64,000 bases of DNA from Methanotrichaceae archaeon (GCA_963748825.1 CAVVKN010000006.1:64001-128000), one strand, 5' to 3'; numbered from the stretch's first letter, positions 8,152 to 43,057 are shown. Numbers and translations: made by a program. Notes: a model not told the origin generated them from the letters alone.

Positions 8152-9267
8152 TTATCCAGGCGGGGCGAAAGTAATCCTGGTGCGCCATCCACAAGAAAGC
8201 TCCAGTTCCTCGTTCCAGCCGCTCTTGGCCAGGGCATCGATCAGTTCTGCTTTATATCCCAGATCCAGGCCCTGCAAGAGATCTACATGCTCTGCCCAAA
8301 GAGCCACTTTGATGCGGCCCGTCTCATCGGAGATGTAGATATTGGCCACCCTTCCGGCTTTTCCGTCATCTCTTTGAAACTCTCGCACCTCTCCCAGACC
8401 CGTTACAAAGCCGGAAACGCTGCAGATCATGCCGGGCTTTAGCTCGGCTATGGGAGTCATCTTCTCGGAGAACGAAACCGTTTCATTGCTCTTTTTAACT
8501 GTGCTGTAGTTTCCCGTCTGAATCTCCAGCGATCCGTACCTCTCCCGGCATGAGCCGTTAATGACCTCTATTGTCTCGCCCTTCTCCAGAGCCATTGCAG
8601 CCTGCTCATTCCAGAGGGTAAGCCTGATCTTGCCCGTCTCGTCTCCCAAAAGCACTGTGCGAACCTGTCCTTTGCCTCCGTCTTTACGCAGGAACTCTCT
8701 GATCTCGCCTGGATCCACGACGGCGCCTAGAAGGCTGACCTCGCCCATGTCGCTCTTGATCTCCGCAATTTTATATGGCTCGGTCCTGGGCAATATGTCT
8801 AAATCCACTTCCTCGATGCCGCCGCTTCTGCCTAAGGTAACCTCAGTTCCCGCGTAGCCCTCTTTGGCCAGACCTCTCACCTTGAGGCACTGGCCCTCCT
8901 TCAGATCTCCGGAGCGGACCAGCTCTACCGTCTCATCCCAGAGAGCCACGCGCACAGATCCCGTCTCGTCGGCCAGCGTCAGGTTTGCGACCCGTCCCAT
9001 GGACCCATCAGAGCGGGGAAACTCGCGTATCTCGGAGACTGCGAGCACACGGCCCGTGAAGGTGACATTTCCCGTCTCCGGCCGGATGCTGCCAATCTTG
9101 GTCAGCACCTCGGATGCACCCAGGTCCCGGGCCACAAGCATGGCCGCAGTCCTGCCATCGCATAGCCCCGCCATGAGGGCTACCTTTTCCTCTACCCTCG
9201 CCTGGAAATCCTCCGGCGTGATCTGATCTGCCACCTGCCGGTAAATTTCCTCAACTTGCTCGTCCAT
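8152..9267 (-). CDS. rpa: Replication protein A (three OB folds)
   Basis: Three repeats of EIREF.R.DG..GRV..L.L.DETG.IR..LW. Confidence 0.9.
   Translation of the reverse strand: MDEQVEEIYRQVADQITPEDFQARVEEKVALMAGLCDGRTAAMLVARDLGASEVLTKIGSIRPETGNVTFTGRVLAVSEIREFPRSDGSMGRVANLTLADETGSVRVALWDETVELVRSGDLKEGQCLKVRGLAKEGYAGTEVTLGRSGGIEEVDLDILPRTEPYKIAEIKSDMGEVSLLGAVVDPGEIREFLRKDGGKGQVRTVLLGDETGKIRLTLWNEQAAMALEKGETIEVINGSCRERYGSLEIQTGNYSTVKKSNETVSFSEKMTPIAELKPGMICSVSGFVTGLGEVREFQRDDGKAGRVANIYISDETGRIKVALWAEHVDLLQGLDLGYKAELIDALAKSGWNEELELSCGWRTRITFAPPG
8160..8172 (-). promoter_or_regulatory. ACTTTCGCCCCGC motif upstream of radA (candidate DNA-damage operator)
   Basis: Identical 13-mer at 23617-23629, 32377-32389 and 43045-43057; 16 bp before TATA-like TTGTTAAA; lies inside the rpa 3' end. 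Confidence 0.5.
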
Positions 9268-9273
9268 TCCCGA

Positions 9274-11007
9274 TCATCCATGAACTTTATAGCGCTCTTC
9301 CAGGTACTTCAGATAGGGAGCATGGCAGGAGGCCAGGAAGGCGTTACAGACCGTTGCCGGATCCCCATCTGCTGCAATGGCTCCGTTCTCAATGAGCATG
9401 GCCCGATGGGAGATCTCCTTGACGAAATCAACATGGTGGCTGACAAGGATTATGGTGGTGCCAAGCTCTGCATTTATCTTCTTAATGGCGTTAGAGACCT
9501 CACGCATGGTGATCGGGTCGATATCACCGAAGGGCTCGTCCAGAATCAGGATCTTGGGCCTGGACGCCAGAATAATGGCTAAAGATGCTCTCACCAGCTC
9601 TCCGCCGCTCAGTTGCTCGGGCAGCTTCCACATGGCTTCTTGATCAAGGGAAATAAGATCAAAGATCGGCTCAGCATACTTGCGGGCCTCAGTCGTCGGA
9701 AAACGGGGAAACAGATCTTTGAATATGTCTCTGGTCAGTCCCAGTGACTCAAGGGCGGCTTTGGCGTCCTCTTCCGACATATCAGTCATTGCATAAATGA
9801 CATCAAGCACCTTGTCGCTTATGCCCAGCTCCTCTGCCACAGCCCGGGCATGGTCAATCACATCATTGCCCTTGATGCCCATTTTATAGGCAATCTGATC
9901 GAGAATGGTCTCTCCGGCATAAAGGGCGAACTCCTGATACATGATGCCTAAAGTGCGGCGCACATTCATTCTATCTGGCGAGTAGTTCATCATGTCTACC
10001 CATTTATCGCCGTACCGATAATACACGACCCCCTCGTCCGGCATCCTAACGCCCTGCATGATCTTGAGAAGAGTGGTCTTTCCCCCACCGCTGTTGCCGA
10101 TGATTGATGTGATCTCTCCTTCTAATATGTCGAAGTTGAGGTTCTTCATATTCAGGACATTCAGGACCTCTCCGGTGCAAATCTGGCAGCCCCTCTTGGA
10201 TATACCTCTCACTTTAATAAGAGGCTGGGCATTGGGCCAGGATGCAAGAGGCTCCATCTTTCCAATCCCTGCCATGAACTGGTCCAAGACCTGCCTCGGC
10301 TTCCCATCGGCTACTATCTTTCCCTTCTCCAGCCAAATCAGTCTATGTGCCAGATACTCATGAATCTCGGGCAGATGTGATACTACGATTATGGTCAGAT
10401 CCAGCTCCTTGTTCACGTTCTTGATGGCATCCAGCACTTCTTGCTTGGTGGCCGGACAGGCCATGGTGGCCGGCTCATCCAGCAGCAATATTTTGGGCTT
10501 CTTGGACAGTTGTCTGGCTATGAGCAGCCTTTGCTTCTCGCCGCCGCTGAGGATAGTGGCCAGATGCTGTGCTTTGTCCCCCAGGCCCACAAGTTGCAGG
10601 TAGTACATGGCCTCCTGGTACATCTCGTCATAGTCCCCGTCCGAGGGAATGGGCAGAACCTCATAGCCGGTTTTTCTGGCATGAATCCTTCGCACCACGT
10701 TTTTAAGGGCAGTCTCTGTCCAGAGTGCGAAGTCTCTTTGCAGATGTATGGCTGTAACGGCCATCTGCGCCCTTTTCACATCGTCGCTGGAATCGGGTGT
10801 GATGGTCAAGCCATCCAGGAGGATCTTGCCGGAATCAAAGCTCTCCATACCTCTCAGAATCTTCATGAGAGTGCTCTTGCCTCCCCCGCTCTTTCCCACC
10901 AATCCTAAAATCTCACCCGGCCTGGTTGTGAAGCTAACATTTTCAAGAGCCACAACATCTCTGTCCTTCACCCTGTATGTCTTGGACAGATTCTCAATCT
11001 GGAGCAA
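9274..11007 (-). CDS. atwA: Methyl-coenzyme M reductase system component A2 (double ABC ATPase)
   Basis: Two ABC domains (GKSGGGKS, GNSGGGKT); AIHLQRDFALW, DEPATMACP. Confidence 0.88.
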   Translation of the reverse strand: MLQIENLSKTYRVKDRDVVALENVSFTTRPGEILGLVGKSGGGKSTLMKILRGMESFDSGKILLDGLTITPDSSDDVKRAQMAVTAIHLQRDFALWTETALKNVVRRIHARKTGYEVLPIPSDGDYDEMYQEAMYYLQLVGLGDKAQHLATILSGGEKQRLLIARQLSKKPKILLLDEPATMACPATKQEVLDAIKNVNKELDLTIIVVSHLPEIHEYLAHRLIWLEKGKIVADGKPRQVLDQFMAGIGKMEPLASWPNAQPLIKVRGISKRGCQICTGEVLNVLNMKNLNFDILEGEITSIIGNSGGGKTTLLKIMQGVRMPDEGVVYYRYGDKWVDMMNYSPDRMNVRRTLGIMYQEFALYAGETILDQIAYKMGIKGNDVIDHARAVAEELGISDKVLDVIYAMTDMSEEDAKAALESLGLTRDIFKDLFPRFPTTEARKYAEPIFDLISLDQEAMWKLPEQLSGGELVRASLAIILASRPKILILDEPFGDIDPITMREVSNAIKKINAELGTTIILVSHHVDFVKEISHRAMLIENGAIAADGDPATVCNAFLASCHAPYLKYLEERYKVHG

Positions 11008-11019
11008 AATAAAAACCTC

Positions 11020-13038: not shown

Positions 13039-13236
13039 TCTAGAACACCGCTTCTGCTTATGATGAAACAGGCAGATATAGGTTTCCCAGCCTGGCGGTC
13101 TCGCCGGTTCCTATGAAAAAAGTTCTTGGATAAAATGTATATAATTGAATGGCAAATGCAGGCAATAGTATTAAATTCGCCATCACATGAGAGGAAAAAA
13201 GAAATTAGAGACAATAGATTTAACGGGGGTATTCAG

Positions 13237-14226: not shown

Positions 14227-14479
14227 CTTGACGGGTGGCTTTCCGGAGATATTGCATGCTGCCTGGGAATCTCCCAGGCATATCTTTTGAGAGGGGCTTT
14301 GACACCGGTGCTAGGGATTTGCATGGGTTTTATCATATATATAAATAAATTATATTATTATGTTATGCGCGGAGCGATTGTCTCAATAGCCAAGATTTAT
14401 GAATAACATCTATCTATTCTAGGCAAGGAACCAAAAAGGACCCAAAAGAATATATCATAACATCGGAGGTATGTTATAG

Positions 14480-16442: not shown

Positions 16443-16461
16443 CTAAAATCAAATTATCAAA

Positions 16462-16556
16462 TGTGAACTACCGCGTACTGAAGACCACCCTGAAGGATTG
16501 GGGACTTACCGATGTTTCGACTTCTCGCCGAAACTCTCGCTGACCCGCGGTCAGCG
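16462..16556. mobile_element. Possible non-autonomous IS200/IS605-type end remnant
   Basis: TGTGAACTACC...CCACCCTGAAGGATTGGGG resembles IS605-type terminal hairpins (recalled pattern); second hairpin CGCTGACC-CGC-GGTCAGCG. Confidence 0.35.
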
Positions 16557-16594
16557 ATATTCGTCCTTCACAATCCTACAAGTTATTTTTTTAT

Positions 16595-17260: not shown

Positions 17261-17278
17261 GAGCGATCACATGAATCA

Positions 17279-17872: not shown

Positions 17873-17874
17873 TA

Positions 17875-18729: not shown

Positions 18730-18735
18730 GACTTA

Positions 18736-23127: not shown

Positions 23128-23481
23128 TCATCTTCTCTTCAGCACTATCCGATCTCCTGCGGCCACGCTCTTAAATATCTCCAGCCCCTCTGTGACCTTC
23201 CCGATATGGTTCACAGACGAATAAGGCTGGGTCTTGCCAAAGAAGATGCAGAAGGCCGGGCCTGGCGACCAATAACAAATGTCGCCCGCGGCTGCAGAGG
23301 GCGATGGATTCTCATTGTCCATCTGCAAAGGCACATCGAAGTAGACCTCTTCGCCCCAGAGGTTGGCTATGCCCTCCAAGGGCAGCGCCTTAAAGAATGC
23401 CTCTCTTATCTTGGGATTCCTTTCGTCCAGCTTTGCCAGTGCCTTTCCCTTTCCCGTAATCTCGATCTCTATGGTTCTCAT
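23128..23481 (-). CDS. Cyclophilin-like fold protein (DUF369/TM1367 type)
   Basis: LWGEEVYF, GDICYWSPGPAFCIFFGKTQP, VNHIGKV; GGAGG SD. Confidence 0.85.
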   Translation of the reverse strand: MRTIEIEITGKGKALAKLDERNPKIREAFFKALPLEGIANLWGEEVYFDVPLQMDNENPSPSAAAGDICYWSPGPAFCIFFGKTQPYSSVNHIGKVTEGLEIFKSVAAGDRIVLKRR

Positions 23482-23825
23482 GAATTTCAGCCTCCTTGAT
23501 CGACATTTGCTCTTTATCCGGGGAATGGCGGGCATGAGGGATAATTTTTTGGGTTCTGCACAAAACCGCCAGAGGTCAATTATTCCTGGCAAGCCTCTCT
23601 CAGAAGCTGGCCGGTTACTTTCGCCCCGCGCGGCAAATCTACTCATAGCCGCTGGTACTACTATGATTTAGACCGCCCAGCCTAACTCTTTTGACTACTC
23701 CCGGTGGGCGGATCCATCCCCTCAAGGATCGAAGATCTATCTATATGCGACTATTTTATAAAGGTGCGGTGCTCTATTAGAATATAATGGGGCAATTTTT
23801 CAGCTCCGGTAGGTGAGGCTAGAGA

Positions 23826-24497
23826 ATGGCGAAGCTGGAGGAAAAGGGAATTCTGGGAATCAAGGGAATTATATTCGACCTTTATAACACCTTGATTGAC
23901 ATCCATACCGATGAGGAGAGCATCAATACCTATGAGGCTGTCAGCAAGTGGCTGATCTATCAGGGTGTTAAGATCCCGGCAGAGGATCTGAAGAATGATT
24001 ACAGGCGGATGGCTAAAGAGGGGATGGAAGCCAAGTGGGAGAAGCATCCTGAGATCCGGGTGGAGGATATCTTCGGCAGGATCTGCAAGAGCCATGCCCT
24101 CAGGGATATAGACGAGGTGCGGCTGGGAGTAGAGACGGCTCGCGCTTTTCGGGCCGGATCACTACGCCGGTTGAAGCTCTTTCCTCAAAGCCTCCAATTA
24201 TTGCAGAGGCTGAAAAGCTACCCAAAGGTCATTGTCTCCAACGGCCAGAGATCGTTCTCGGAGCAGGAGATGAGATATTTCGGCCTTTACGAGCAGTTCA
24301 CTCATGTGATTTTCTCCTCAGACTTCGGCCATAAAAAGCCCGACCCCAGGATCTTCCTGGAGGCGGCCAAGCTGATGGGCAATGAGCCGGAGGAGGTCAT
24401 GTGCATCGGCGACAGCTTCGAGAATGACATAGCTGCGTCCTCTCGGTTGGGCATGAGGGCTATGCATATCGAAGAGGCCTGGAGACTGTTAGGCTGA
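23826..24497 (+). CDS. HAD-superfamily hydrolase
   Basis: FDLYNTL, VSNGQ, KKPDPRIF, IGDSFENDI. Confidence 0.9.
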   Translation: MAKLEEKGILGIKGIIFDLYNTLIDIHTDEESINTYEAVSKWLIYQGVKIPAEDLKNDYRRMAKEGMEAKWEKHPEIRVEDIFGRICKSHALRDIDEVRLGVETARAFRAGSLRRLKLFPQSLQLLQRLKSYPKVIVSNGQRSFSEQEMRYFGLYEQFTHVIFSSDFGHKKPDPRIFLEAAKLMGNEPEEVMCIGDSFENDIAASSRLGMRAMHIEEAWRLLG

Positions 24498-25465: not shown

Positions 25466-25474
25466 GGACACATT

Positions 25475-29268: not shown

Positions 29269-29502
29269 GGAATAACTGCATTCATGCAATAGCGGTCTGA
29301 TGGGTGAGTTACAAAAGACCGCTAACAATTGACTCGATGAGGCTTCTTGCGGTAGTTTCTTGCCAGCTATCGATTCTTGAGATTTCTTTCAATGGTCATA
29401 ATGTTTATCTAGAATTGAACAGTTAATGTTAATTAAATCGCATGGATGAACGCCGCAGATTTTATATTATCTTCGCAGCTGGCTTCGTTGACCCTGGCTA
29501 AG

Positions 29503-29897
29503 CCTGGGTCGGCCGGCTCGGTCATCTTCTGCAGGTGAGGGTCCAGCGCCGGCGCGTAGAGCGGGATGGTCGCCTGTCTGGAGGTCTGCTTCAGATCCTG
29601 GGCCACGTACGCATCATCTCCTCGGCATCCTCGTGGAACAGGGTCATGCCCCACGACCAGGAAGCTGTGGTGGTTCTCCTCCTAGATAGTCATGAGCTGG
29701 AAGAGGGTGTTGGCGCGGCGCACTTCCAGCTCCGTGAAGTTGCGGTTCAGCTGGCTGAGGATGCAGGAGTAGTTGCCACAGATGAAGAGGATCTTGTAGT
29801 GCTGCAGTTCCAGGTGGCTGCACCGGGCTTTGGCCAGCAGCTCCAAGGGGGGATGAGGAGGCTGTTGGTCTCGGGGAGCAGGGAGATGGTAGGGTAG
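29503..29897 (-). pseudogene. Decayed copy (B) of the RadA-like first gene of the PolB2 cassette
   Basis: Translates to PTISLLPE...LELQHYKILFICGNYS.ILS.LNRNF.ELEVRRA.TLFQLMTI*EE.HH, homologous to 42490-43002; frameshifts and TAG. Confidence 0.85.
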
Positions 29898-30080
29898 AAA
29901 AAGCAGGTGGCCCCAAGAAATTATTTGAGTGGTCTGGAAGTGGGGCGTCAAACATTTCCGCCATTGAATTCATGAATTGATCCCCTAACGAACATGTTCG
30001 TCGCCTCAACCTAATAATGGCTAATCAAATATGCTGCCAAAGAGTTCAGCGTCTTGTCCGATGGTAGGAAGGTTATAAGA

Positions 30081-31807: not shown

Positions 31808-32114
31808 ACGAGTTCTCCTATTGGCCATTTTTTCGACATGCTCATCTATTACCCTTTCCCTGAGAGATCCTCAGACATTTTTCGATGATTTTCGCGTTGC
31901 AACCATTTATTACTTTTCCTGTGGGTCTCTTTTTCTTTAGCGGTTGAGAAATCGTTAGCGGCGTGTTCGGGTCGTTGCCTCCAGAAGGATAACCCTCCAC
32001 CCAGTAATTCATTTCATACTATTCTCGCAGATCCTCAATGTTTCAAATGTGGCAGTCCCAATGTCTTTTGGTCCGCTTTTCATCCAGCCAACGAATTCCT
32101 TGGCGATCTGGCTT

Positions 32115-32232
32115 GGCGGGAAGTCGCTGCAGGAGATCCAGGAGATCACCTTCGAGATCGGCATGCCGGGCAAGTACGGGCTGGATATCAATGATCCCCA
32201 GGAGAGCCACGTCCTGCGAGCACTGCCGGGAA
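32115..32232 (+). pseudogene. Fragment of TPR-protein C-terminal domain
   Basis: GC-rich; GKSLQEIQEITFEIGMPGKYGLDINDPQESHVLRALPG; fits the part missing from 34255-34707 (recalled family architecture). Confidence 0.5.
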
Positions 32233-32390
32233 GTGGCTGTTCAGGGCATCGGCCAGCAGCTCCACGGGGGCGACCAGGACGCTGAAGGTTTCGGGGAGCA
32301 GGGAGACGGTCGGGTGGAGATCGATATCCATGATAGGATATGGGTGGCTCTGGGGATATGAGGGCGAGGCAAGGGGGCGGGGCGAAAGTG
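32232..32390 (-). pseudogene. Copy (C): promoter and 5' end of the PolB2-cassette first gene
   Basis: MDIDLHPTVSLLPETFSVLVAP matches MDFELLPTVSLRSRSFNALTAP; upstream GGGGATATGAGGGCGAG...GCGGGGCGAAAGTG shared with 43022-43058. Confidence 0.85.
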
Positions 32391-32469
32391 AACGGGACGC
32401 TGTTAGTTATTCTTGTCTCAATACTACGATAAAAAGAGCCAGCTCATCGCTGGCGTTTTCAAATATCTA

Positions 32470-34161: not shown

Positions 34162-34254
34162 GTTTTAAGTTTTCCCTCCTTGCTTAACTTAATTAATTTG
34201 TGGTTAATGTATTTAACTTTATCAGATCAGACCAATCCTTGAAAAATCTACCCG

Positions 34255-34707: not shown

Positions 34708-34779
34708 TTGCATCTTGCTTACGGGTATCCGCTGAAGTGCCGAAAGTTATATCTGCTTTACAATCTTTACAAGATCACC

Positions 34780-34965
34780 ATGCTTGCCACAAAGCGAGTA
34801 GCAGTTACTGAGCCTGTATGGGCCGAGCTATCCGATCTCAGGAAACCGGGGGAGACCTTCAACCAGCTCCTCGCAGAGATGATCGAACGAGAAAAGAAGG
34901 CTCGTTTGATCGAGCGTCTGTTGCAGATTGCCGATGAAGGCGACTATGTGGAGTTGCCTCCTTGA
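34780..34965 (+). CDS. Putative antitoxin
   Basis: TKRVAVTEPVWAELSDLRKPGETFNQLL; BRE/TATA CGAAAGTTATAT upstream; overlaps toxin start. Confidence 0.75.
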   Translation: MLATKRVAVTEPVWAELSDLRKPGETFNQLLAEMIEREKKARLIERLLQIADEGDYVELPP

Positions 34966-35252
34966 GCCGCAAGGTGGTTATCGATAGAAAGACTCTGTTA
35001 TATCTATCAGAGCTCCCAGAGAAGAGCCAGCGGCTTATTAAAGAGAAGTGCCACGCCCTTGCCGAAGATCCCTTCCCAGGCCAGGGAGGTGATAAGGAGC
35101 TGCTGCATCTCGAATTCAAATTCTATCGATTGCATATTGGTCGATCGTTCACTGTGTTTTATCAAATCTGCGAGGAGGAGGAGCTTGTCAAGATCCTAGA
35201 GATCGTGACTATCGACAAAGCACACAAGCTTTACAAGCATTTCGAGGGGTGA
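34962..35252 (+). CDS. RelE/ParE family toxin
   Basis: LAEDPFPG, YRLHIGRSFTVFYQI, AHK.Y. Confidence 0.8.
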   Translation: MSRKVVIDRKTLLYLSELPEKSQRLIKEKCHALAEDPFPGQGGDKELLHLEFKFYRLHIGRSFTVFYQICEEEELVKILEIVTIDKAHKLYKHFEG

Positions 35253-35358
35253 TGCATGCGCATAGACGCCGCTTATTCTCTTCAATCCGGGTGCGCCTTT
35301 TATCTACCTTTTTAATATTCTATTTCCTGTGGAAACCGGAATCAGACGGCTCAAAGCA

Positions 35359-35402
35359 GTTCTATGATATTATTAAGAGTCTTAAGTAAGATGCCATAGA
35401 AC
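35359..35402. repeat. Inverted repeat GTTCTATG-N28-CATAGAAC in the promoter of the 126-aa gene
   Basis: Same arms and spacing at 50218-50261. Confidence 0.7.
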
Positions 35403-35410
35403 TATATTGC

Positions 35411-35791
35411 ATGCACCGTACCCCCTCCGGCGATCGCCGCCAGGCCCTCCAGAAGGAAGCCCGGGAGCTGGCCAGGGACGCCCGAATCCTGCAGAAGGTC
35501 GCCCGTGCACCCGCGGCCCGCAGGGAGGCAGAGAGGCTGCAAGGAGAGGCGGAGGCGGCCCTGGCAGAGGCCGAGGCCCTCAAGCACCAGGCCAGGCTGG
35601 AGGATCTCACAGTATGGAAGATGGAGAAGGTCAAGCAGAGCCGAAAGGGCTCCAAGACCTACACCTACTGGATGGCCTCCTGGCGCGAGGACGGCAAGAC
35701 GCGCAATGTGCACCTGGGGAGCGCCAGGAAGATGGATGCCGAGGCGGCAAGGCAGAAGGCCAGGAAGATGAAGGCGGAAGCATTAGGATAG
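35411..35791 (+). CDS. 126-aa coiled-coil plus putative beta-sheet DNA-binding protein
   Basis: Ala/Glu/Arg helix, then KTYTYWMASWREDGKTRNVHLG, similar to the IS1634 transposase N-terminus in this window. Confidence 0.75.
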   Translation: MHRTPSGDRRQALQKEARELARDARILQKVARAPAARREAERLQGEAEAALAEAEALKHQARLEDLTVWKMEKVKQSRKGSKTYTYWMASWREDGKTRNVHLGSARKMDAEAARQKARKMKAEALG

Positions 35792-35831
35792 CAAGCCAAA
35801 GAATAGACAGCGGGATAGATTCAAGAAGAGG

Positions 35832-36383
35832 TTAAAGCAGTCCCATGTTCTCAAGCTGCATCCTGACGATCCGTGCCCCTTCTTCGCACTCCTCCGGCGA
35901 TTTGCCGCCCGTGATCACCAGTTTGCCGGAGCTGAAGATGAGCACTACCACTTTGGGCACCTTGATCCTGTAGACCAGCCCAGGAAACTGCTCCGGCTCG
36001 TACTCGATGTTCTCCAGGCCCAGGCCCAGGGCGACGGCGTTTAAGTTCAAGTCCGACTTCAGGTCTGCGGAGGCCACAATATTCTGAACGTGGATCTCAG
36101 GCTCCATATCGATCTTCTCGAAGCCCATGGACTTGAGCGTCTTGGCCAGGGTGGCGATGACCATGCGAACATCCTCGACGTTCTTGGATCCGGTGCATAC
36201 TACCTTGCCGGAAGTGAATATGAGAAAAGCAGCTTTAGGGGCCTTGACTCTGTAGATGAGACCGGGAAACTTCTCCTTGTTATAATCGGCGCCCTCCAGC
36301 TCGGCTTCGATCTTGGGCAGATCGAACGCATCCGCCAGCTTGGTGGATGCCACCACGTTCACGATATCTATTGTGGACTTCAT
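35832..36383 (-). CDS. tbp: TATA-box-binding protein (island-borne copy)
   Basis: Two TBP repeats: [23 protein letters not shown]; [29 protein letters not shown]. Confidence 0.95.
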
Positions 36384-36775
36384 ATGCACGTATGTCTCTA
36401 AACCTCTCTTTATATAGTCCGGCATTGGGCCTGTGGTGGGCCCTGAAAAATGCCGCCGGCATCAAACGGAGGATTCATTTCGCAAATCTGGCCAACGTCG
36501 CTTTCCTGCGCGTCCATTTCTGCGACTCACGCTGTAGATCTTCTTGCTCTATTGCTTGCCGGCCCGCCCTGCCAACCAAGTTGTCTCTGTTTTTCCTGGG
36601 ACGCCCCATACTCATCCCCACTGATATAATATACTCTAATTTGATTTCTACATTTGAATTCAGAACTATACACTTGCATTATGTTAATATTATATAAATC
36701 TAATGGTTTGGTCTACATTGCACGATTTGTTCCGGTTCCGTTTAACGATAACTTGGTTTTTAAGAAATTATTTAT

Positions 36776-37192
36776 ATGATTATGATATTTGTCAGAAGCG
36801 TAGGAGGAAGCATCATCAGAGAAGTTACTATCAAGGTCGCAGACAAAAAGGACTTGGAGTTCATGCTGGGCCTGGAGAGCCTGGGCATGAAAAGAACCGT
36901 GGCCTGCGTCATAGCATTTCTCAAGGATCAGAAAGAGAGATCTGCCAGGGATATCGAGGTGGCCACCGGCCTGAGGCAGCCGGAAGTCAGCATTGCCATG
37001 CAAACCCTGAGGGAAAGGGACTGGCTCACTGAGCATGAGATCAAGAGCAGCGGAAAAGGCAGACCCTTGAAAATCTATGCTTTACGAGCGACCATCGATG
37101 AAATCATAAATTATTGCGAAGCTGAGAAAAGCAGGGAATCTGCCAGGTTCTCTGAGGCCATCCAGAGGCTGAAGGAACTGAGCTCGGCATAA
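36776..37192 (+). CDS. Predicted transcriptional regulator (COG4738/ArsR-like HTH), copy 1
   Basis: RDIEVATGLRQPEVSIAM, GKGRPLKIYAL; start may be ATC at 36812/36815. Confidence 0.85.
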   Translation: MIMIFVRSVGGSIIREVTIKVADKKDLEFMLGLESLGMKRTVACVIAFLKDQKERSARDIEVATGLRQPEVSIAMQTLRERDWLTEHEIKSSGKGRPLKIYALRATIDEIINYCEAEKSRESARFSEAIQRLKELSSA

Positions 37193-37289
37193 GCTCAGAA
37201 GGAGATCACTCCTTCGTGGATCTTCGCGCCCAGGCCCACCGCCTCCTCGACTGCTGCCAGGTCCTTCATCAAAAGTAAAAGAGATGACT

Positions 37290-37388
37290 GGAGCCAGCCA
37301 TAAAGGGAGTATACGGGGTGACTGCCTCCAATTAACAAGTAGTAGTAATAGTTAAAAAGGATCATCCGCGCGCCGCGAAAGTGATTTC
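37290..37388. repeat. About 100-bp repeated element, copy 1 (copy 2 at 39204-39304)
   Basis: GGAGCCAGCC...GGGAGTA...TAGTAGTAATAGTTAAAAAGGATCA...GCGAAAGTGATTTC shared by both. Confidence 0.8.
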
Positions 37389-37445
37389 AATGCTCACATT
37401 TGATTCTGCTCATGCAGATTACTTGGTCTTTAAGAAATTATTTAT

Positions 37446-37859
37446 ATGATTGTAATATTTATCAGATATATAGGAGGAAGCATCATCAAAGAAGTTACTA
37501 TCAGGGTTGCTGAAAAGGACATGGAGTTCGTGCAAGGACTGGAGAGCCTGGGCATGAAAAGAACCGTGGCCTGCGTCATAACATTCCTCAAAGATCAAAA
37601 CGAGAGATTTTTCAAAGAAATCGAAACGGCTACGAGACTGAGACAGCCGGAAATCAGCAGAGCCATGCAAATCTTGCGAGAAAATGGCTGGCTTACTGAG
37701 CATTATATTAAGGGCAACGGAAATGGCAGACCCTTGAAAATCTATGCATTACAAGCTACCATCGATGAGATCATAAATTATTACGAAGCTGAGAAAAGCA
37801 GGGAATCTACCATAACCTCTGAGGCAATCCAGAGGCTGAAGGAACTAAGCTCTGCATAA
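37446..37859 (+). CDS. Predicted transcriptional regulator, copy 2 (tandem duplicate)
   Basis: Near-identical to copy 1; duplicated unit 36751-37271 vs 37421-37937. Confidence 0.85.
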   Translation: MIVIFIRYIGGSIIKEVTIRVAEKDMEFVQGLESLGMKRTVACVITFLKDQNERFFKEIETATRLRQPEISRAMQILRENGWLTEHYIKGNGNGRPLKIYALQATIDEIINYYEAEKSRESTITSEAIQRLKELSSA

Positions 37860-37860
37860 A

Positions 37861-38268
37861 TCAGAAGGAGATCTCTCCTTCGTGGATCTTCGCGCCCAGG
37901 CCCACCGCCTCCTCGACTGCTGCCAGGTCCTTCATCAGGAATATCCTCTCGTTCGCAGCCTCCTTGAAGGCCACGGAGTTTTTCAGGATCTGCGCATACT
38001 TGGCGTGTTTGGGGAGCTGGACAACGTAGCCCTTCAGATCCTCCACCAGGTCGTAGTCGAAGCCATTTCGCTCCAGGAGCTTGAGAGCATTGTTCCTTGC
38101 GCCGATGGATTTGAACTCGAAGCGGTATAGGTTTTTGTTGTAATAGTCCAGCAACGCATTGAATAGCTCATGGTTATCGAAGAACTGCTTGAAGACCCAG
38201 AGCTTGCCGAGCTTGAAAAATGTGATAAGCTTACGCCTCTCTATCAAGTCGAAGGTATTGGCCTGCAT
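37861..38268 (-). CDS. Conserved hypothetical protein
   Basis: GAGGAG SD; its 3' end is duplicated at 37195-37271. Confidence 0.75.
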   Translation of the reverse strand: MQANTFDLIERRKLITFFKLGKLWVFKQFFDNHELFNALLDYYNKNLYRFEFKSIGARNNALKLLERNGFDYDLVEDLKGYVVQLPKHAKYAQILKNSVAFKEAANERIFLMKDLAAVEEAVGLGAKIHEGEISF

Positions 38269-38494
38269 GGGGAGCTCTCCTCGGCGTAATTATCACATTA
38301 ATTCGCGATAAATCTATGGGTAACTCATTGCCTATTGATTAGTACTATTACACCCCAGAAGCGAATCTTCGTGGACCAGCCTGCAAAAGTACTGATAAAT
38401 GGTAAGTAAAATAGTTTCGATAGGATCTGTCCAGTATTATTGTCAGATCTATACGTAATCGTCTATATGATTCTTAAAGGGTGTATTATGTTCT

Positions 38495-38767
38495 ATGAGA
38501 TATCTGCTCCCAATCATGGCCGCTTGCATCCTGATGGCCTTCATGAACACGGCCTTTGCCATGGGCGAAGATATTTCGGATTTGGAGAAACTTATCTCCG
38601 GCAATGAAGATACGCGCATGAATGCCCAGGATCTGGCTTTCTTCCTTGCCACTCATAATTACAACGCTATGCCAAGGGATGGCTATGTGGAGCTGAATCT
38701 GAACTGCATAATCTACAAACTCATCCCCAACAGCGAAAAACCAGGATTATGTGACATAGAATACTGA
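38495..38767 (+). CDS. Small secreted protein, copy 1
   Basis: Signal peptide ending TAFA; NED.RMN.QDLAFFLATHNY...DGYV...KPGLCD. Confidence 0.8.
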   Translation: MRYLLPIMAACILMAFMNTAFAMGEDISDLEKLISGNEDTRMNAQDLAFFLATHNYNAMPRDGYVELNLNCIIYKLIPNSEKPGLCDIEY

Positions 38768-38788
38768 ACTGGCAATTTGGAGGGATAT

Positions 38789-39064
38789 ATGATGACATCA
38801 AAAAGAAGGACTAACGACTTAATTGTATCGCAAATTTTGAAACTATGCGTGCCTGGTGCGAGCAAAACAAGGGTTGTGTATCAGGCCAATCTGAACTTCT
38901 TGACGGTAAATCCATATTTAAATAATTTGATAAAAAATGAATGCATTGAGGCAGTGCATGAGGGCTCCAGGGTTGTCTATAAAACTACGCCAAAAGGGAT
39001 GGATCTGAAAGAGAGATTTGAGCAGTTTCAGAGCGCGATAGGTGAGCTGTATGCATGTGTTTGA
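38789..39064 (+). CDS. Winged helix-turn-helix protein, paralog 2
   Basis: GASKTRVVYQANLNF...YKTTPKG. Confidence 0.85.
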   Translation: MMTSKRRTNDLIVSQILKLCVPGASKTRVVYQANLNFLTVNPYLNNLIKNECIEAVHEGSRVVYKTTPKGMDLKERFEQFQSAIGELYACV

Positions 39065-39203
39065 AGCCTGAGACCCTATGGAGCGAGAGTGCTGGTATAA
39101 TAGCAGTAACCAGCCGTTCTTGAGCTCCAATCCAAACCCACCTTCTTTTCTCCAACAGCTTACTTCATCAGGAATACCCTACGCCAGTGTAAAAAGAATA
39201 GCA

Positions 39204-39304
39204 GGAGCCAGCCGCAAAGGGAGTACGAGGGGGAGGCTGTCTCCATTCGAACAAATAGTAGTAATAGTTAAAAAGGATCACCCGTGCGTAGCGAAAGTGA
39301 TTTC
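39204..39304. repeat. About 100-bp repeated element, copy 2
   Basis: Matches 37290-37388. Confidence 0.8.
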
Positions 39305-39504
39305 TAGCATCTTCCGCCGCCTTCTCCTCCAATGGGATGCCACGAAAGCCCGCCAGAAGTTCCCTAACAGAAAAATCTTTCCTTAATCCTATATAAAAAT
39401 ACTAATCAATGTTAAGGATAATTGTTTCGATAGGATCTGTCTATTATCCTGATCAGATCTAGACGTAATCATCTATATGATCCTCAAAGAGTACATTGTA
39501 CTCT

Positions 39505-39789
39505 ATGAGAGGGAACACGAAATATCTGCTGGCAATCATGGCCGCTTGCATCCTAATGGCCTTCATGAACACGGCCTTCGCCATGAATGAAGATATTTCG
39601 GATTTGAAGAAACTTATCTCTGTCAACGAAGATATTCGCATGAATTCCCAGGACCTGGCCTTCTTCCTTGCTACCCATAATTACAGCACCGTTCCCAAAG
39701 ATGGTTATGTAAATGTAGATCTGAACGGCAAGATCTGTAGACTCGTTCCCAATGGCGATAAGCCGGGATTATGCGATACATCATTCTAG
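39505..39789 (+). CDS. Small secreted protein, copy 2
   Basis: Paralog of 38495-38767 with conserved upstream region. Confidence 0.8.
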   Translation: MRGNTKYLLAIMAACILMAFMNTAFAMNEDISDLKKLISVNEDIRMNSQDLAFFLATHNYSTVPKDGYVNVDLNGKICRLVPNGDKPGLCDTSF

Positions 39790-39805
39790 TCCAAGGAGCG
39801 GAATA

Positions 39806-40054
39806 ATGAAGAGAAACCGACAGGAAATAATCTCGCAAATACTGGAAATATGCATTAATGGAGCCAGTAAGACCAGAATTGTGTATCAGGCTAACCTCAA
39901 CTTCAAAATGGTAAATCCCTATCTGGATCTTCTGATTAAAAATGAGATGATACAGGTCAACGAAAAACAGGTTACGCTATACGAAACTACGCTGAAGGGC
40001 AAAAGTCTGCTGGAAAAAATGCAAAAAGTCCATGGTGAGCTATCTGAGTTGTGA
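39806..40054 (+). CDS. Winged helix-turn-helix protein, paralog 3
   Basis: MKRNRQEIISQILEICINGASKTRIVYQANLNF; very close to 27310 paralog. Confidence 0.85.
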   Translation: MKRNRQEIISQILEICINGASKTRIVYQANLNFKMVNPYLDLLIKNEMIQVNEKQVTLYETTLKGKSLLEKMQKVHGELSEL

Positions 40055-40087
40055 AGACCGGATCACTCACCAACCCACGCCGTCTCC

Positions 40088-42034
40088 CTATCCCGCTCCG
40101 AAAACAAACCCCACTTCCTTCCACGCCTTCTCCAGCAGCTTCCCGTAATACCCGGCATCGAACACCGACGCCGTCCTCTCCGGCTCCACCTCCCACTTTT
40201 TGGCATCCTTTATCACGTAGCCTATCTCCATTCCCGGTGCCAGGGGAATCCCTTGCTTCAGGTGAGCCTGCACCGCCGAGGCTTCAGCACACCTGCGAGA
40301 ATAGCTCAGCCTGCTAACCCTGCGATGAATGGCCAGCTCCCGGACGTCAGCCTCTCCCAGTTCCGCCATGTACCTTCTGGCAACGCCTCGGGCCCTGGGC
40401 TCTATCCACTTCAGCTCCTCCCGGCTCCTCGCTTCACCCAGGACCTCGAACAGCTCTTTCTGCATGCGGAGCACATATTCGGGCGTGTCTCCCTTGCGGG
40501 CCATCACGCCCCGGATCTTCATCTTGCCCGTGTCCAGCCGCCCAAAGTAGCGGTTGTAGGCACCCGAACCGTCAGCCATGGGCAGGAAGGCGATCCAGTC
40601 GTAGGAGTCCACCTCCGTCAGGATGCCTGTCTCCCTCTCCACGGTCTCCTTGAAGCTCGCTATGGGCTCGCCTATAACCCATAAACAGTCCACAATGCCA
40701 TGCAGAACCTCAAAGTTAATGTCCTCAGCCAGTTCCTTGATCTGCATGAGCAGCTCCCTGGAGATGCCTGTGATCCTCTCATGCACCTGTATCTGGCCGA
40801 ACTTGGCGTTCCTGTAGCCGGTGTAGCCGAAACAGGTTACCAGCATCCATTTCAGGACCGAGTCTATGCCGGCGTAATCCGGGTTGGTCTTCTTCAGCCT
40901 CTTGGTCTCAATGCGCAAATTGAGCAGCGAGGAGAGCACGGTGCTGAGAAAGCCCTTCAGCTCCGGGTGTTCGATGGTTTCTGGGGAGAGGTTGTACTTC
41001 ACGATGATCGAGGGGTACAGGGAGGTGAAGTCGATCTGGTGGACCTTCTCGTACACGCCCGGTTCAGGCTGGAAGATCATGCCTCCCTTGTCGCAGGCCC
41101 TCAGCTCGGAGATATTCCTCAGGCCCTCTGCGTCCCGTTTCCGAAAGGGCACGGCCACGCCCCGACGCAGCGCCTCGAAGACCTCGTAGCTGGAGATGAG
41201 CGTGCCTGGAGTGAAGCGGGAGGTGAGATTCGGGGAGAGGCCGGAGAGCCGGGAGGCCATGAGGACGCCCTTCAGGCCGCTCTCGGCATAGACGAAGCTC
41301 TTGGAGGTGTCTATCAGCACCCTGCCCTCGGGGATGAGAGCGCCGTCCTTATGGTTGACTTTTCCATAGCTCCAATAGGATTTGGAGGCCATCGGCTTGA
41401 AGAAGCCAGTGCGGCTGATGGTCGGCTCCAGGCCGTACCTCCTGGCCTTGCGAACTATGAGCGGAATCCAGGTATCGGCATTGGGGCAGAGAATCAAATC
41501 CGGATCATGGGCCTTGATCAGCTCCAGGAGATCGGAGAGGACCTGTCTCTCAGATCCTTCCAGCCTCCGCTTGCGGCCATTGAGGACCTCGACACGGGAG
41601 ATCTCTCTAGGCATAGAAGGATCTCCGGCCACCTTAAGCTCAAGGCTGGTCAGAGGGATCTCAAAATCTGGCGAGAACCGGGACTCGTCTCTGTCTCCAC
41701 AGGGGAAGAGGTCGTGCTCGGCCATGTAGCGCTGGTCCTGGCGGACGTCCACGTTATAGAGCTCGACCTGATGGTGGGTTTGGATCTCGATCTTCTCGGC
41801 TACTTTGCGGCTGGCGTAGATTCTGTGGCCCTGGAAGGTGCCGAAGATGGTTCTGAAGCTGCACTCCTCCGCCTTGAAGCGGTTCTCCAGGGCCTCGATC
41901 ATCTCCCTGTGAGCAGAAGGGTCCTTGAGGTGCATGTAGAACGAGGGAGGATAGGCGGCGCTGGCTTTGGTTAGTCCTCTCTCCCGGCCCCACAGCTCCA
42001 CACAGCCCTTGTAGTAAGAGTCGAAAATCCACAT
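40088..42034 (-). CDS. polB2: Family B DNA polymerase, PolB2 group
   Basis: Motif A DFTSLYPSII, motif B KWMLVTCFGYTG, altered motif C HGIVDCLW, degenerate exonuclease; DKGGMIFQPEPG. Confidence 0.92.
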   Translation of the reverse strand: MWIFDSYYKGCVELWGRERGLTKASAAYPPSFYMHLKDPSAHREMIEALENRFKAEECSFRTIFGTFQGHRIYASRKVAEKIEIQTHHQVELYNVDVRQDQRYMAEHDLFPCGDRDESRFSPDFEIPLTSLELKVAGDPSMPREISRVEVLNGRKRRLEGSERQVLSDLLELIKAHDPDLILCPNADTWIPLIVRKARRYGLEPTISRTGFFKPMASKSYWSYGKVNHKDGALIPEGRVLIDTSKSFVYAESGLKGVLMASRLSGLSPNLTSRFTPGTLISSYEVFEALRRGVAVPFRKRDAEGLRNISELRACDKGGMIFQPEPGVYEKVHQIDFTSLYPSIIVKYNLSPETIEHPELKGFLSTVLSSLLNLRIETKRLKKTNPDYAGIDSVLKWMLVTCFGYTGYRNAKFGQIQVHERITGISRELLMQIKELAEDINFEVLHGIVDCLWVIGEPIASFKETVERETGILTEVDSYDWIAFLPMADGSGAYNRYFGRLDTGKMKIRGVMARKGDTPEYVLRMQKELFEVLGEARSREELKWIEPRARGVARRYMAELGEADVRELAIHRRVSRLSYSRRCAEASAVQAHLKQGIPLAPGMEIGYVIKDAKKWEVEPERTASVFDAGYYGKLLEKAWKEVGFVFGAG

Positions 42035-42038
42035 ATGT

Positions 42039-42272
42039 CTATTTTTCTCGCCCCATCTCTAGCTCCCTCAACAGCTCCACCAGCACCGAAAACACAGCCG
42101 CCTCCAGCGGGTCATCAAGTGCATAGAAAGCCTCACTGGAGTGCTTCTTGGCCATCTCTGCCACCTTTTGCCCGTAAACCTGGTCCTCCTTCTTCAGGGC
42201 CCGGCTGGCCTTCAGCCATCTGGCAGAGACATCCTTCACGCCCATCCTCACGCTCTCGAAACTTCGTCCCAT
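42039..42272 (-). CDS. Small helical PolB2-associated protein (arCOG07300/PPB2-like)
   Basis: MGRSFESVR...W....RALKKEDQ...A..H.......DPLEAAVFS.L.E directly upstream of polB2. Confidence 0.8.
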   Translation of the reverse strand: MGRSFESVRMGVKDVSARWLKASRALKKEDQVYGQKVAEMAKKHSSEAFYALDDPLEAAVFSVLVELLRELEMGREK

Positions 42273-42274
42273 AG

Positions 42275-42493
42275 CTACTCCCCCAGGCAGAACGTCGCCG
42301 GCCACCGCCCTTCCTCGCGCGCCTCGTGCCCGCTCTCCTCCAGCCTGCTTTTTATCATCTCTTCCACCTCTCCTGGCCGAGCGTGGAAGACCTCCGCCAG
42401 TATCTCCTTGGCCGTCTCCAGCTCCTGGGCTCTGACACTGATCGCCCGCCTGGGCTCAATCGGCCGGGCCTGCTGCTTCCAGGGCCACCTCAT
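42275..42493 (-). CDS. 72-aa unknown protein within the PolB2 operon
   Basis: ATGA overlap with upstream stop; conserved paralog at 50614-50853. Confidence 0.75.
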   Translation of the reverse strand: MRWPWKQQARPIEPRRAISVRAQELETAKEILAEVFHARPGEVEEMIKSRLEESGHEAREEGRWPATFCLGE

Positions 42494-43002
42494 GAGTAAG
42501 CCTCCAGCGTTCTCTGGTTCTCCCTCGCCCGCGGGTGGGCTTTGGCCACCAGCCGTGGAGTTTCACGGGGGCCTTCTTCAAAGTAGAACACCCGGTCGGC
42601 ATTCTGCACCAGGTCCTCGAAGAAAGGGTCAATCCCCGGGGCGTAGAGCAGCACGGCGGCCTCTTTTGCGGCATCGCTCAGTGCATGGGAGACGTACTCG
42701 GTCATCTCTCGGGCATCCTCGTAGAGGAGAGGGTCATGCTCGATGAGAATCAACGAATGATGGGCCTCCTCCAGGATGGTCATGAGCTGGAAGACGGTAA
42801 ATCCCCGGCGGATTTCCAGGACCTCAAACCTGCGGTCCAGCCTGGAAAGGATGGCGGAGGAGTTGCCGGTGACGTAGAGCACCTTGAACCGTTGCAGGTT
42901 AAGGTTGCGATTCAGGGCCTGGATGAACATCTCCCTGGGAGCCGTCAGGGCATTGAAGGACCGGGACCGGAGGGAGACCGTGGGAAGAAGCTCGAAGTCC
43001 AT
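42490..43002 (-). CDS. Truncated, inactivated RadA/RecA-like protein (iRadA-like) heading the PolB2 operon
   Basis: VLYVTGN, IRRGFTVFQL, LILIEHDP, ADRVFYF resemble the RecA core without Walker A; known PolB2 neighbourhood. Confidence 0.7.
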   Translation of the reverse strand: MDFELLPTVSLRSRSFNALTAPREMFIQALNRNLNLQRFKVLYVTGNSSAILSRLDRRFEVLEIRRGFTVFQLMTILEEAHHSLILIEHDPLLYEDAREMTEYVSHALSDAAKEAAVLLYAPGIDPFFEDLVQNADRVFYFEEGPRETPRLVAKAHPRARENQRTLEAYS

Positions 43003-43044
43003 GCTTAAAGGCTGGAGCTACGGGGATATGAGGGCGAGCCGGGA

Positions 43045-43057
43045 GCGGGGCGAAAGT
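43045..43057 (-). promoter_or_regulatory. ACTTTCGCCCCGC motif upstream of the PolB2 operon
   Basis: 43 bp upstream of ATG; identical to the motif upstream of radA. Confidence 0.55.

Follow-up and report, generated by a model that had tools for sequence, protein, structure and literature searches.

The locus described here raises the question of whether a short sequence found in front of both the recombinase gene radA and a cassette for the DNA polymerase PolB2 is a regulatory site and, if so, which genes it serves and which factor reads it. The locus lies in a stretch of 64,000 nucleotides of DNA from a Methanotrichaceae archaeon (GCA_963748825.1, CAVVKN010000006.1:64001-128000), which is referred to as the window, and the sequence in question is the 13-mer ACTTTCGCCCCGC. 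A first-pass annotation of the window had proposed that this 13-mer is an activator site that defines a DNA-damage regulon. Judged from sequence, the 13-mer is very probably the regulatory site of a DNA-repair regulon throughout the genus Methanothrix. It is likely that the element responds to DNA damage, and activation is favored, with less assurance, as its mode of action.

The element and its promoters in Methanothrix

A pattern search of the window recovered all four exact copies of the 13-mer at the positions first reported, and the TATA-like boxes were found where they had been claimed. The elements and their boxes are as follows.

8160-8172, minus strand: exact 13-mer in the promoter of radA, set over the final codons of rpa
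8142-8149, minus strand: TATA-like box TTGTTAAA of radA, 10 nt past the 13-mer
23617-23629, plus strand: exact 13-mer, followed by the TATA-like box TACTCATA (23640-23647), a conserved leader and a HAD-IA hydrolase gene (23826-24497; identified by Pfam and NCBIfam)
32377-32389, minus strand: exact 13-mer before a decayed iRadA copy, with the TATA-like box CTCATATC at 32355-32362
37370-37382, minus strand: variant element ACTTTCGCGGCGC with the TATA-like box TTTTTAAC at 37351-37358, within a duplicated block of 55-100 nt
39286-39298, minus strand: variant element ACTTTCGCTACGC with the TATA-like box TTTTTAAC at 39267-39274, a homologous copy of the 37370 site
43045-43057, minus strand: exact 13-mer in the promoter of the PolB2 (mutasome) operon, with the TATA-like box CTCATATC at 43025-43032

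When up to two mismatches to ACTTTCGCCCCGC were allowed, eight sites were found in the window compared with 1.44 expected, a number reached in none of 100 shuffles; four of the eight, 37370(-) and 39286(-) among them, carry two mismatches. The core TCACTTTCGC occurs in the window at 32382, 37375 and 39291 (all on the minus strand), where 0.15 occurrences were expected, and no intact gene lies downstream of the 37370 variant site. The gap between the motif and the start codon is 66 nt at radA (ATG at 8093) and 42 nt at the first gene of the PolB2 operon (43002), in agreement with the distances given earlier, and the decayed iRadA copy (ATG at 32331) lies 45 nt from its 13-mer at 32377. Alignment of the six flanks revealed nothing in common outside the motif, save within the paralogous pairs 43045/32377 and 37370/39286. 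The earlier caveat that two of the sites are homologous is correct, 43045 and 32377 being paralogous promoter copies.

The 2.88-Mb assembly from which the window comes (G000) contains 11 exact copies of the 13-mer, 6 copies with one mismatch and 85 with two, compared with ~0.09, 3.4 and 60 expected by our own arithmetic. The genome-wide promoter enrichment on which the proposal depended is thus present, and nearly all copies are promoter-proximal. Each of 24 congeneric genomes sampled carries 3-10 exact copies, and none was found in 16 genomes from two other families of the same class. The motif is therefore present in 25 of 41 genomes (G000 and its 24 congeners), whereas a reversed control pattern gave three matches in all 41.

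The analysis of promoter context covered all 144 exact sites of these 25 genomes. With a TATA-like octamer defined as at least six of eight matches to YTTWWAWW, a box lies 9-12 nt past the motif at 81% of the 144 sites, compared with 13% of 5000 random positions, and the best box stands at the modal offset of 10 nt in 72 of the 144, which bears out the fixed TATA spacing. The offset is 12-14 nt in the promoters of the PolB2 operon and of a membrane protein. Out of eight positions, the TATA match is 7.9-8 at RPA, Nre and DUF2188, 6.1 at PolB2 and radA, and 5.4 at the HAD hydrolase. With one consensus taken for each of 26 promoter families, the motif extends upstream by g-A-(T/a)-Y before ACTTTCGCCCCGC, and of the bases past it, the second is preferably C. 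The element is asymmetric, non-palindromic and always oriented toward the TATA box, and the flanks are non-homologous between gene families.

A relaxed pattern, ACTTTC[GA][CA]NNNGC, gave 31 matches in G000, of which 19 have a TATA-like box, compared with 11 and 2 for the reversed pattern. Additional relaxed sites with good TATA boxes were observed at C3:55695(+), C4:80635(-), C9:261623(+), C21:17765(+) and C21:73798(+), where the variant elements are ACTTTCACGCCGC, ACTTTCGCTCTGC, ACTTTCGCTACGC and ACTTTCGCGTCGC. From their N-terminal sequence, we take the genes behind these sites to resemble IS200/IS605 TnpB.

At radA the motif lies, as had been cautioned, inside the rpa coding sequence, over its last codons (...ITFAPPG, then stop). 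A search for radA that was independent of the motif found the gene in 56 of 59 genomes of the genus, and among the best 30 of these 56 loci, all 29 that have upstream sequence carry the site with at most one mismatch (the exact 13-mer in 21, ACTTTCGCTCCGC in 5, ACTTTCGCGCCGC in 2 and ACTTTCACCCCGC in 1). The motif is therefore kept upstream of radA in relatives. The ninth motif base, which is variable at radA, is the wobble base of an Ala codon in the RPA tail. The other three of the four wobble bases within the motif copy are invariant in 28 genomes, while those of the 12 preceding rpa codons are off consensus in 0-16 genomes each. This pattern at the synonymous sites of the rpa 3' end, which the first-pass annotation had singled out as informative, indicates constraint beyond coding at the radA site.

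Genes behind the element

The open reading frames (ORFs) downstream of the 144 sites were clustered by BLAST, and the site classes rest on TATA spacing and on the families of these ORFs. Recurrent promoter families account for 133 of the sites. The family counts below are lower bounds, because only exact 13-mers were counted and many of the genomes are 56-90% complete.

radA: 17 sites in 17 genomes
PolB2 operon, arranged as at 43045 and including decayed copies: 17 sites in the 25 genomes
411-aa zinc-finger RPA (NF005553), followed by a 282-aa gene: 16 sites in 16 genomes
p154, a 154-aa protein of no known family: 16 sites in 15 genomes
Structured leader or small RNA, mostly before a NitT/TauT-type ABC ATPase: 16 sites
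Radical-SAM and HhH protein (TIGR03916, 335 bits, just below cut-off) with DUF4130/TIGR03915: 12 sites in 12 genomes
Nre (Nre_N and Nre_C): 10 sites in 10 genomes
Conserved leader and HAD-IA hydrolase (window site 23617): 9 sites
p67, a protein of 67-77 aa: 7 sites in 7 genomes
NrdD: 3 sites in 3 genomes
DUF2188: 3 sites in 3 genomes
Membrane protein of 73-85 aa: 3 sites in 3 genomes
88-aa family: 2 sites in 2 genomes
267-aa protein with a weak HhH match: 2 sites in 2 genomes
Singles, including XseA, Cas1 and a PolB directly behind the motif: 11 sites in 11 genomes

Across the 25 genomes, the motif thus recurs in front of rpa, the polB2 operon and further repair genes, a point that the first-pass annotation had proposed to check.

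Several members of this set were characterized further. The helical protein p154, which is encoded in G000 on contig 22 (~199540-200003, minus strand; L138:4539-5003), has the exact motif upstream in 15 of the 25 genomes; it has no match in Pfam or NCBIfam and no usable match in the protein atlas, and on its promoter context it is a candidate for a new repair or damage-response factor. The structured RNA is ~100 nt long and stands directly behind the motif and TATA box (G000 contig 9, ~139480-139590, minus strand; L135, ~4500-4590, minus strand), with homologs in L164, L165, L172, L174, L178, L184, L185 and L188. Its fold is an extended hairpin capped by the conserved loop UACA(C/A)G(C/U)UUC, with a UCAYCCC tail behind which a U-rich stretch lies in most cases. 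Eleven Methanothrix sequences and 7 sequences of the sister family preserve this RNA, with 3 compensatory pairs in each set; in Methanothrix it precedes the ABC ATPase gene, and in the sister family it stands alone. A search of Rfam with this small RNA or leader (G000 contig 9:139612) returned nothing above chance. In the congeneric genome G008, an exact motif and its TATA-like box stand ahead of a Cas1 gene (Pfam 5e-83; L035:479-1522, minus strand), at a distance of 78 nt between motif and gene.

The 23617 promoter is predicted to yield a transcript (window 23640-23760, plus strand) whose first part is conserved at 9 sites among the 25 genomes (...GGTACTACTATGATTTAGACCGCCC...) and which has a CCGCCCA/TGGGCGG hairpin ahead of the HAD hydrolase gene; this could be a small RNA or a leader. 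The longest cyclophilin-like ORF (23128-23646), which runs on the opposite strand, overlaps the 23617 motif at its 5' end.

The genes of the radA locus and of the PolB2 operon are the following.

7117-8093, minus strand: radA (Rad51/HhH; Pfam Rad51 3e-83, HHH_5), here in two frames, 7875-8093 and 7117-7908
8152-9267, minus strand: rpa (replication factor A, 371 aa; Pfam OB folds; NCBIfam NF012035, 412.6 bits), directly upstream of radA
42490-43002, minus strand: iRadA, 170 aa, the first gene of the operon, with a RecA/Rad51 fold and a degenerate P-loop
42275-42493, minus strand: ORF for a 72-aa protein, a paralog of the p67 family
42039-42305, minus strand: ORF for an 88-aa protein, candidate PPB2
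40088-42034, minus strand: PolB2-type family B DNA polymerase, 648 aa (NF004416, 884 bits with a cut-off of 516; Pfam DNA_pol_B)

The radA frame is split by a 1-nt deletion in a G run within window positions 7941-7975 (G4 here, G5 in relatives), and in the relatives the gene is intact and encodes 325 aa. Of 24 runs listed, all of them as assembled contigs, which show neither transcript starts nor levels, four public RNA-library runs were compared over 6900-9400, and the contigs of all four have one extra base at 7955-7959. Either the assembly has a homopolymer error here, or the gene is a pseudogene specific to this strain. Low contig cover at 7992-8159 in two of the RNA runs carries no weight as a finding.

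An iRadA-PPB2-PolB2 operon has been described by Timinskas et al. (2025), with archaeal polB2 neighborhoods enriched in orc1/cdc6 genes (PMC11791011), and the operon is reportedly also treated by Makarova et al. (2014). By a term search, the word "promoter" is absent from the main text of the 2025 paper. Such operons are reported to be damage-inducible in other archaea. The window operon resembles this mutasome in its order of an inactive RadA-like protein, small protein(s) and PolB2. The 170-aa protein has 683 representative relatives, and its AlphaFold2 model, built with a 31-sequence alignment, has a pLDDT of 89.1 and a pTM of 0.80. The top Foldseek matches of this model are RadA, Rad51 paralogs and RecA (E 8e-5 and up, TMq ~0.55), and the P-loop position of the family, read by eye from the alignment consensus, is CGNYSR rather than GxxxxGK[ST]. 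Because of this predicted RadA/Rad51-like fold and the degenerate P-loop, the 170-aa protein is identified as the iRadA of the published operon. The 88-aa protein, whose homologs lie behind the motif in 2 other genomes, is a candidate PPB2 on gene order only. Neither it nor the 72-aa protein has a match in Pfam or NCBIfam; the 72-aa protein shares, by eye, an ELETAKEIL..EVF...EVEEMI stretch with the p67 proteins. Members of this small protein group (67-77 aa), for which there is no family assignment, are found in the PolB2 operon and, in 7 genomes, as solitary p67 genes that each have a motif copy in front; the solitary gene of G000 lies on contig 23 (188464-188667, plus strand; L139:965-1168).

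Unlike the published operon, that of the window has the extra 72-aa gene, and the window also contains four decayed or 5'-truncated iRadA copies (29433-30009, 31900-32331, 50597-51166 and 52935-53400, all on the minus strand). The copy starting at 32331 has a stop after 47 codons and is the sole decayed copy with the promoter element; the copies at ~30009, 51166 and 53400 are 5'-truncated and have no motif. These copies suggest that the PolB2 cassette has been duplicated or has decayed more than once in this region. The island between the PolB2-operon copies (34900-40100) holds several regulatory-type genes, namely a TBP gene (35832-36425; NF001599, 328 bits), a ParE-like toxin gene (34962-35252), two MarR-like genes and three HTH_45 winged-helix genes, together with tandem duplications of ~667 bp (36747-38268) and ~1 kb (38385-39945). 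A HEAT-repeat gene (48277-50141) is apparently split by an ISAzo13-type transposase gene (48591-49820; DDE_Tnp_ISAZ013 1.6e-141), and a second DDE transposase gene lies at 45290-47101.

Relatives of the element and a candidate regulator

The element is found beyond Methanothrix. In the sister family f3, whose relatives' names point to Methanosarcinaceae, 12 of 13 radA promoters read (g)AATACTTTCA(C/A)...CGC, followed ~10 nt on by a TATA box, and in family f2 the element was present at radA in none of three genomes. The sequence TACTTTCACNNCGC has 40 matches in 12 of the 13 f3 genomes, compared with 0 for the control. The genes behind 30 of the 40 sites are radA (4), radical-SAM (5), RPA (1) and UvrA (2, identified by Pfam), and the remaining loci among the same 30 comprise the small RNA (8), a 26-aa ORF (4) and others (6). 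A conserved ORF of 26-27 codons with a strong ribosome-binding site was observed behind a ACTTTCAC-type element in the sister family (L159, L161, L169 and L187), and it may encode a damage-induced micro-protein.

In a sample of the phylum, the element was found at radA in f11 (4/4), f6 (4/4) and f7 (6/6), and also in f8 and f17; it was not seen at radA in f5, f9, f12, f15 and f19. Among named genomes, A[CT]TTTC[AG] occurs within 200 nt in 47 of the 78 radA loci that have upstream sequence, where ~4 were expected by our own arithmetic, and 43 of the 47 have a TATA-like box. The genomes with the motif include Methanothrix, Ca. Methanocrinis, Ca. Methanoperedens, Methanolobus, Methanosarcina and Methanimicrococcus, a genome of anaerobic methanotrophic archaea (ANME) of group ANME-2, Methanocellales, and a few Thermoplasmata and Archaeoglobi. 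Within the same 78 loci, the motif was not found at radA in ANME-1/Methanophagales, Syntrophoarchaeum and most Archaeoglobi. Two f10 genomes, which have many Orc paralogs and are probably haloarchaea, carry ATTTTCACTTTCA and ACTTTCACTAGGG at radA.

Two published motifs bear comparison with the element. The hexamer ANTTTC was reportedly first described by Le et al. in 2017. Sun et al. (2018) derived AATAGTTTCRGWDTACTCWS from 21 induced Sulfolobus promoters, with the consensus AATAGTTTCRG..., and found that mutation of ANTTTC abolishes induction, that Orc1-2 footprints the element, and that the targets of Orc1-2, which both activates and represses, include dpo2 (PolB2), homologous recombination genes and orc1-2 itself (PMC6061795). 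The same paper calls the coordinated archaeal damage response and its controller an open question. The Sulfolobus precedent named in the first-pass annotation, an ANTTTC UV-responsive element of the Orc1-2 regulon with Dpo2/PolB2 as a member, agrees with this account, in which dpo2 depends on Orc1-2 (PMC6061795). Like this DNA damage-responsive element (DDRE) of Sulfolobales, the Methanothrix element has the core A-N-TTTC-R, ACTTTC being invariant in all 144 exact sites of the genus; it is promoter-proximal, it stands before the PolB2 operon and radA (17 sites each of the 144), and a non-origin Orc1/Cdc6 paralog is present. The sister-family form gAATACTTTCAC fits AAT-A[G/C]TTTC-[A/G] over 10 positions, and AATACTTTCA(C) agrees with the consensus from Sulfolobus at 9 out of 10 positions, the remaining one being N. 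In contrast to the DDRE, the Methanothrix 3' half, GCCCCGC, is GC-rich and lineage-specific, the regulon lacks ups/ced/tfb3 and has RPA, Nre, radical-SAM repair, NrdD and a small RNA, and the Methanothrix paralog gene has no element; the likeness is known here from sequence comparison, whereas the DDRE was tested by mutation and footprinting.

In Halobacterium NRC-1, Boubriak et al. (2008) found the 11-bp motif TTTCACTTTCA upstream of the TATA box of radA1, top6B, vng17 and vng280, which are induced by ultraviolet (UV)-B light, as the first-pass annotation had noted for UV-induced genes including radA; resembling sequences lie at radA of other haloarchaea and of Methanospirillum, a near-match precedes a UV-induced transposase gene, and no regulator is named (PMC2556686). 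The Methanothrix element likewise lies upstream of the radA TATA box and shares ACTTTC(A), and its variant sites before IS200/IS605 TnpB-like genes parallel the near-match at the transposase gene. It differs in having a single TTTC unit followed by GCCCCGC in place of a TTTCA direct repeat, and in its genes, which are not those of the top6B, vng17 and vng280 set. Among the radA promoters of the families used for the prediction test described below, the direct repeat was found only in G091 (f10) and G109 (f20).

G000 has two Orc1/Cdc6 genes. That on contig 24 clearly encodes Orc1-1 (395 bits to 2qby_A; NCBIfam NF001625); it is flanked by three repeats (TCCAYTGGAAAT...GGGG, 39940-41830) resembling the origin recognition box (ORB), which likely mark a replication origin, and one more ORB-like copy lies on contig 21 at 45707. 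The gene on contig 4 encodes a divergent paralog of 377 aa (NF001624/NF001626) and follows a coding region, and no ORB repeats were found near it. The genome thus possesses a non-initiator Orc1/Cdc6 paralog away from origins. The element itself was considered as an ORB and rejected; the order of GAAA and the G-string is reversed relative to the ORB copies, and the element is therefore not an ORB.

The contig-4 protein was used as a query against 51 genomes from 20 families. Its orthologs, which score 286-785 bits at 46-93% identity, were found in f1, f3, f4, f6, f7, f8, f10, f11, f14, f16, f17 and f20, and only matches of 114-175 bits, the level of a cross-match to Orc1-1, in f2, f5, f9, f12, f13, f15, f18 and f19. 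In the 13 families scored earlier, the radA element and the ortholog agree in all, seven families having both and six neither. In a prediction test, the element was found at radA in 8 of 8 genomes of the ortholog-bearing families f4, f10, f14, f16 and f20, and f18 and three further f5 genomes were without it. In total, all 12 families with the ortholog have the element and 7 of the 8 families without it do not, so that 19 of 20 families fit; f2, which belongs to the same class as f1 and f3, represents one clear independent loss of both ortholog and element.

Among the upstream regions of 20 orthologs, those of G110, G082, G114 and G081 have the element ahead of a TATA-like box with the customary spacing, and in G110 radA and the paralog gene share one identical 18-mer. 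The paralog genes of G079 and G099 have inverted copies, placed past the TATA box and ahead of the start codon. No element was found upstream of the paralog in f1, f6, f4, f14 and f20, and none of the 19 relaxed G000 sites with a TATA-like box, among which the gene of an autoregulated factor was sought, lies before a recognizable DNA-binding protein gene. The leading candidate for the factor, with an even chance, is this second, non-origin Orc1/Cdc6 paralog, as suggested by the likeness of the motifs, the co-occurrence, the self-sites in some lineages and the published linkage of polB2 and orc genes. A 2026 paper on Haloferax describes the roles of Orc paralogs in the damage response as a knowledge gap (PMC12890983).

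Mechanism, alternatives and meaning

The best overall explanation of these data, which we regard as probable on comparative grounds, is that the 13-mer is an oriented factor site that marks the repair and damage-tolerance regulon of Methanothrix and is the local form of a Halobacteriota element. A transcription factor would bind the oriented site (g-A-T/a-Y-ACTTTCGCCCCGC) approximately one helical turn upstream of the TATA box, at ~-53 to -41 if the box lies at the usual -30 to -23, where it would contact the pre-initiation complex from the upstream side and activate transcription. Activation is suggested by where the site lies, by the weakness of several TATA boxes and by the precedent in Sulfolobus. 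The genes of the regulon and the UV data from Halobacterium suggest DNA damage or replication stress as the signal. The regulon would comprise radA, the zinc-finger RPA, the iRadA-PPB2-PolB2 translesion mutasome operon, the radical-SAM/DUF4130 pair, Nre and NrdD, as well as the HAD hydrolase, two small proteins and the small structured RNA, and the motif would be the Methanothrix form of an A[C/T]TTTC[A/G]... element that stands upstream of radA across much of Halobacteriota. This wider element corresponds to the Halobacterium UV motif and is similar to the damage element to which Orc1-2 binds in Sulfolobus.

Several observations weigh against this explanation or against the paralog as its factor. 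The genome has few degenerate copies (11 exact, 6 with one mismatch), which is unusual for a factor site, and the ABC ATPase and HAD members have no obvious repair role. The contig-4 paralog scores 131 bits to the Orc1-1-type 2qby_A and 65 bits to A. pernix ORC2 (1w5s), in a comparison with PDB chains only. Family f13 has the element in 2 of 3 genomes and no close ortholog, only extra Orc homologs of 87-109 bits. Because the families are phylogenetically related, few independent events stand behind the co-occurrence, and many clade-specific genes would match the same pattern. In addition, the Methanothrix paralog gene has no motif within 220-340 nt upstream (G000, G020 and G005).

The site may instead be read by a DNA-binding protein other than the Orc1/Cdc6 paralog, which we consider possible but short of an even chance. 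The f13 exception, the missing autoregulatory site in Methanothrix and the higher PDB score of the paralog with an Orc1-1-type chain are all consistent with another factor, and p154 and p67/p72, which are always linked to the motif, could be regulators themselves; p154, however, has no recognizable DNA-binding family. The fit of 19 of 20 families and the identical 18-mer in G110 argue for the paralog, as do the similarity of the motif to the Orc1-2 site and the linkage of polB2 and orc1/cdc6 in archaeal genomes (PMC11791011).

A second alternative is that the element is the operator of a repressor, a functional analogue of LexA that would be released after damage. The analogy to the bacterial SOS system is functional, in that one short sequence links a recombinase, a single-stranded-DNA-binding-type protein, a translesion polymerase cassette and nucleotide excision genes; unlike the SOS box, the element is non-palindromic, sits ahead of the core promoter without covering it, and operates with archaeal transcription machinery. 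The near-consensus TATA boxes at RPA, Nre and DUF2188 should need no activation, and the inverted copies in G079 and G099, between the TATA box and the start of the paralog gene, also speak for an operator. Archaeal activators such as Ptr2, Sta1 and TFB-RF1 usually bind upstream of the TFB recognition element (BRE) and TATA box, whereas repressors mostly overlap the TATA box, the BRE or the start. The asymmetric site has a fixed orientation upstream of the BRE/TATA region, and the other members have poor TATA boxes (HAD, PolB2 and radA). Sulfolobus Orc1-2 does repress as well as activate, but mutation of the Sulfolobus element abolishes induction (PMC6061795). A LexA-like repressor was sought in G000 and rejected, the best Peptidase_S24 match being 17.3 bits and no S24/LexA-type protein rising above cut-off. 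We consider repression unlikely.

A third alternative, that the element is a cell-cycle or replication-coupled box (S-phase, dNTP demand) rather than a damage switch, appears quite improbable. RPA, NrdD and RadA are S-phase genes in eukaryotes, and the TTTCGC core is, as we take it, superficially E2F-like. No strong G000 site, however, lies before MCM, PCNA, primase, PolD or Orc1-1, the members are repair and tolerance genes (the PolB2 mutasome, Nre, XseA and, in the sister family, UvrA), and the haloarchaeal counterpart stands at UV-induced genes (PMC2556686). An E2F-like box (TTTSSCGC) was also considered and rejected; the best E2F_TDP match (E 0.0475) is below cut-off, and sister lineages have TTTCAC, with A at position 7.

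The last alternative, that the 13-mer is a non-regulatory remnant of a mobile element or recombination site or, at radA, a coding by-product of the RPA tail, can draw on the unusually exact copies, the two paralogous duplicates in the window and the coding position of the radA copy, whose one variable position is the Ala wobble base, but it is hardly credible given the unrelated flanks, the orthologous promoters in up to 17 of 25 genomes, the fixed orientation and TATA spacing, the non-coding position of all other sites and the invariance of three of the four wobble positions in the radA copy.

The kind of element, as represented by the Sulfolobus DDRE and the Halobacterium UV motif, and the PolB2 operon were already known. 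The Methanothrix form of the element, its regulon and its spread through methanogen and ANME-2 lineages are new, as are the link between the two published motifs and the co-occurrence with one Orc1/Cdc6 paralog; the papers listed in the literature searches, which did not extend to subscription journals, included no description of the Methanothrix motif or its regulator. More tentatively, and at not quite even probability, A[C/T]TTTC[A/G] and a fast-evolving non-initiator Orc1/Cdc6 paralog may form one ancient archaeal damage circuit of Thermoproteota and Halobacteriota. The Halobacterium UV motif would then be the site of an Orc paralog, and lineages that lost the paralog would have lost the element, namely ANME-1, Syntrophoarchaeum-like groups and most of the Archaeoglobi-like families sampled.

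If this is true, methanogens, ANME-2, Methanocellales and haloarchaea would share a circuit with the DDRE/Orc1-2 system of Sulfolobus, and a methanogen SOS-like regulon would drive the PolB2 mutasome, RadA, RPA, nucleotide excision repair genes, a small RNA and even IS200/IS605 transposase genes. The orphan Halobacterium motif would be linked to the Sulfolobus Orc1-2 system, with one testable regulator named. For Methanothrix, a globally important acetoclastic methanogen, the element provides a sequence-defined regulon in which the mutagenic PolB2 complex is tied to recombination and RPA genes, and in which p154, p67/p72 and the small RNA are flagged as candidate repair or damage-response factors.

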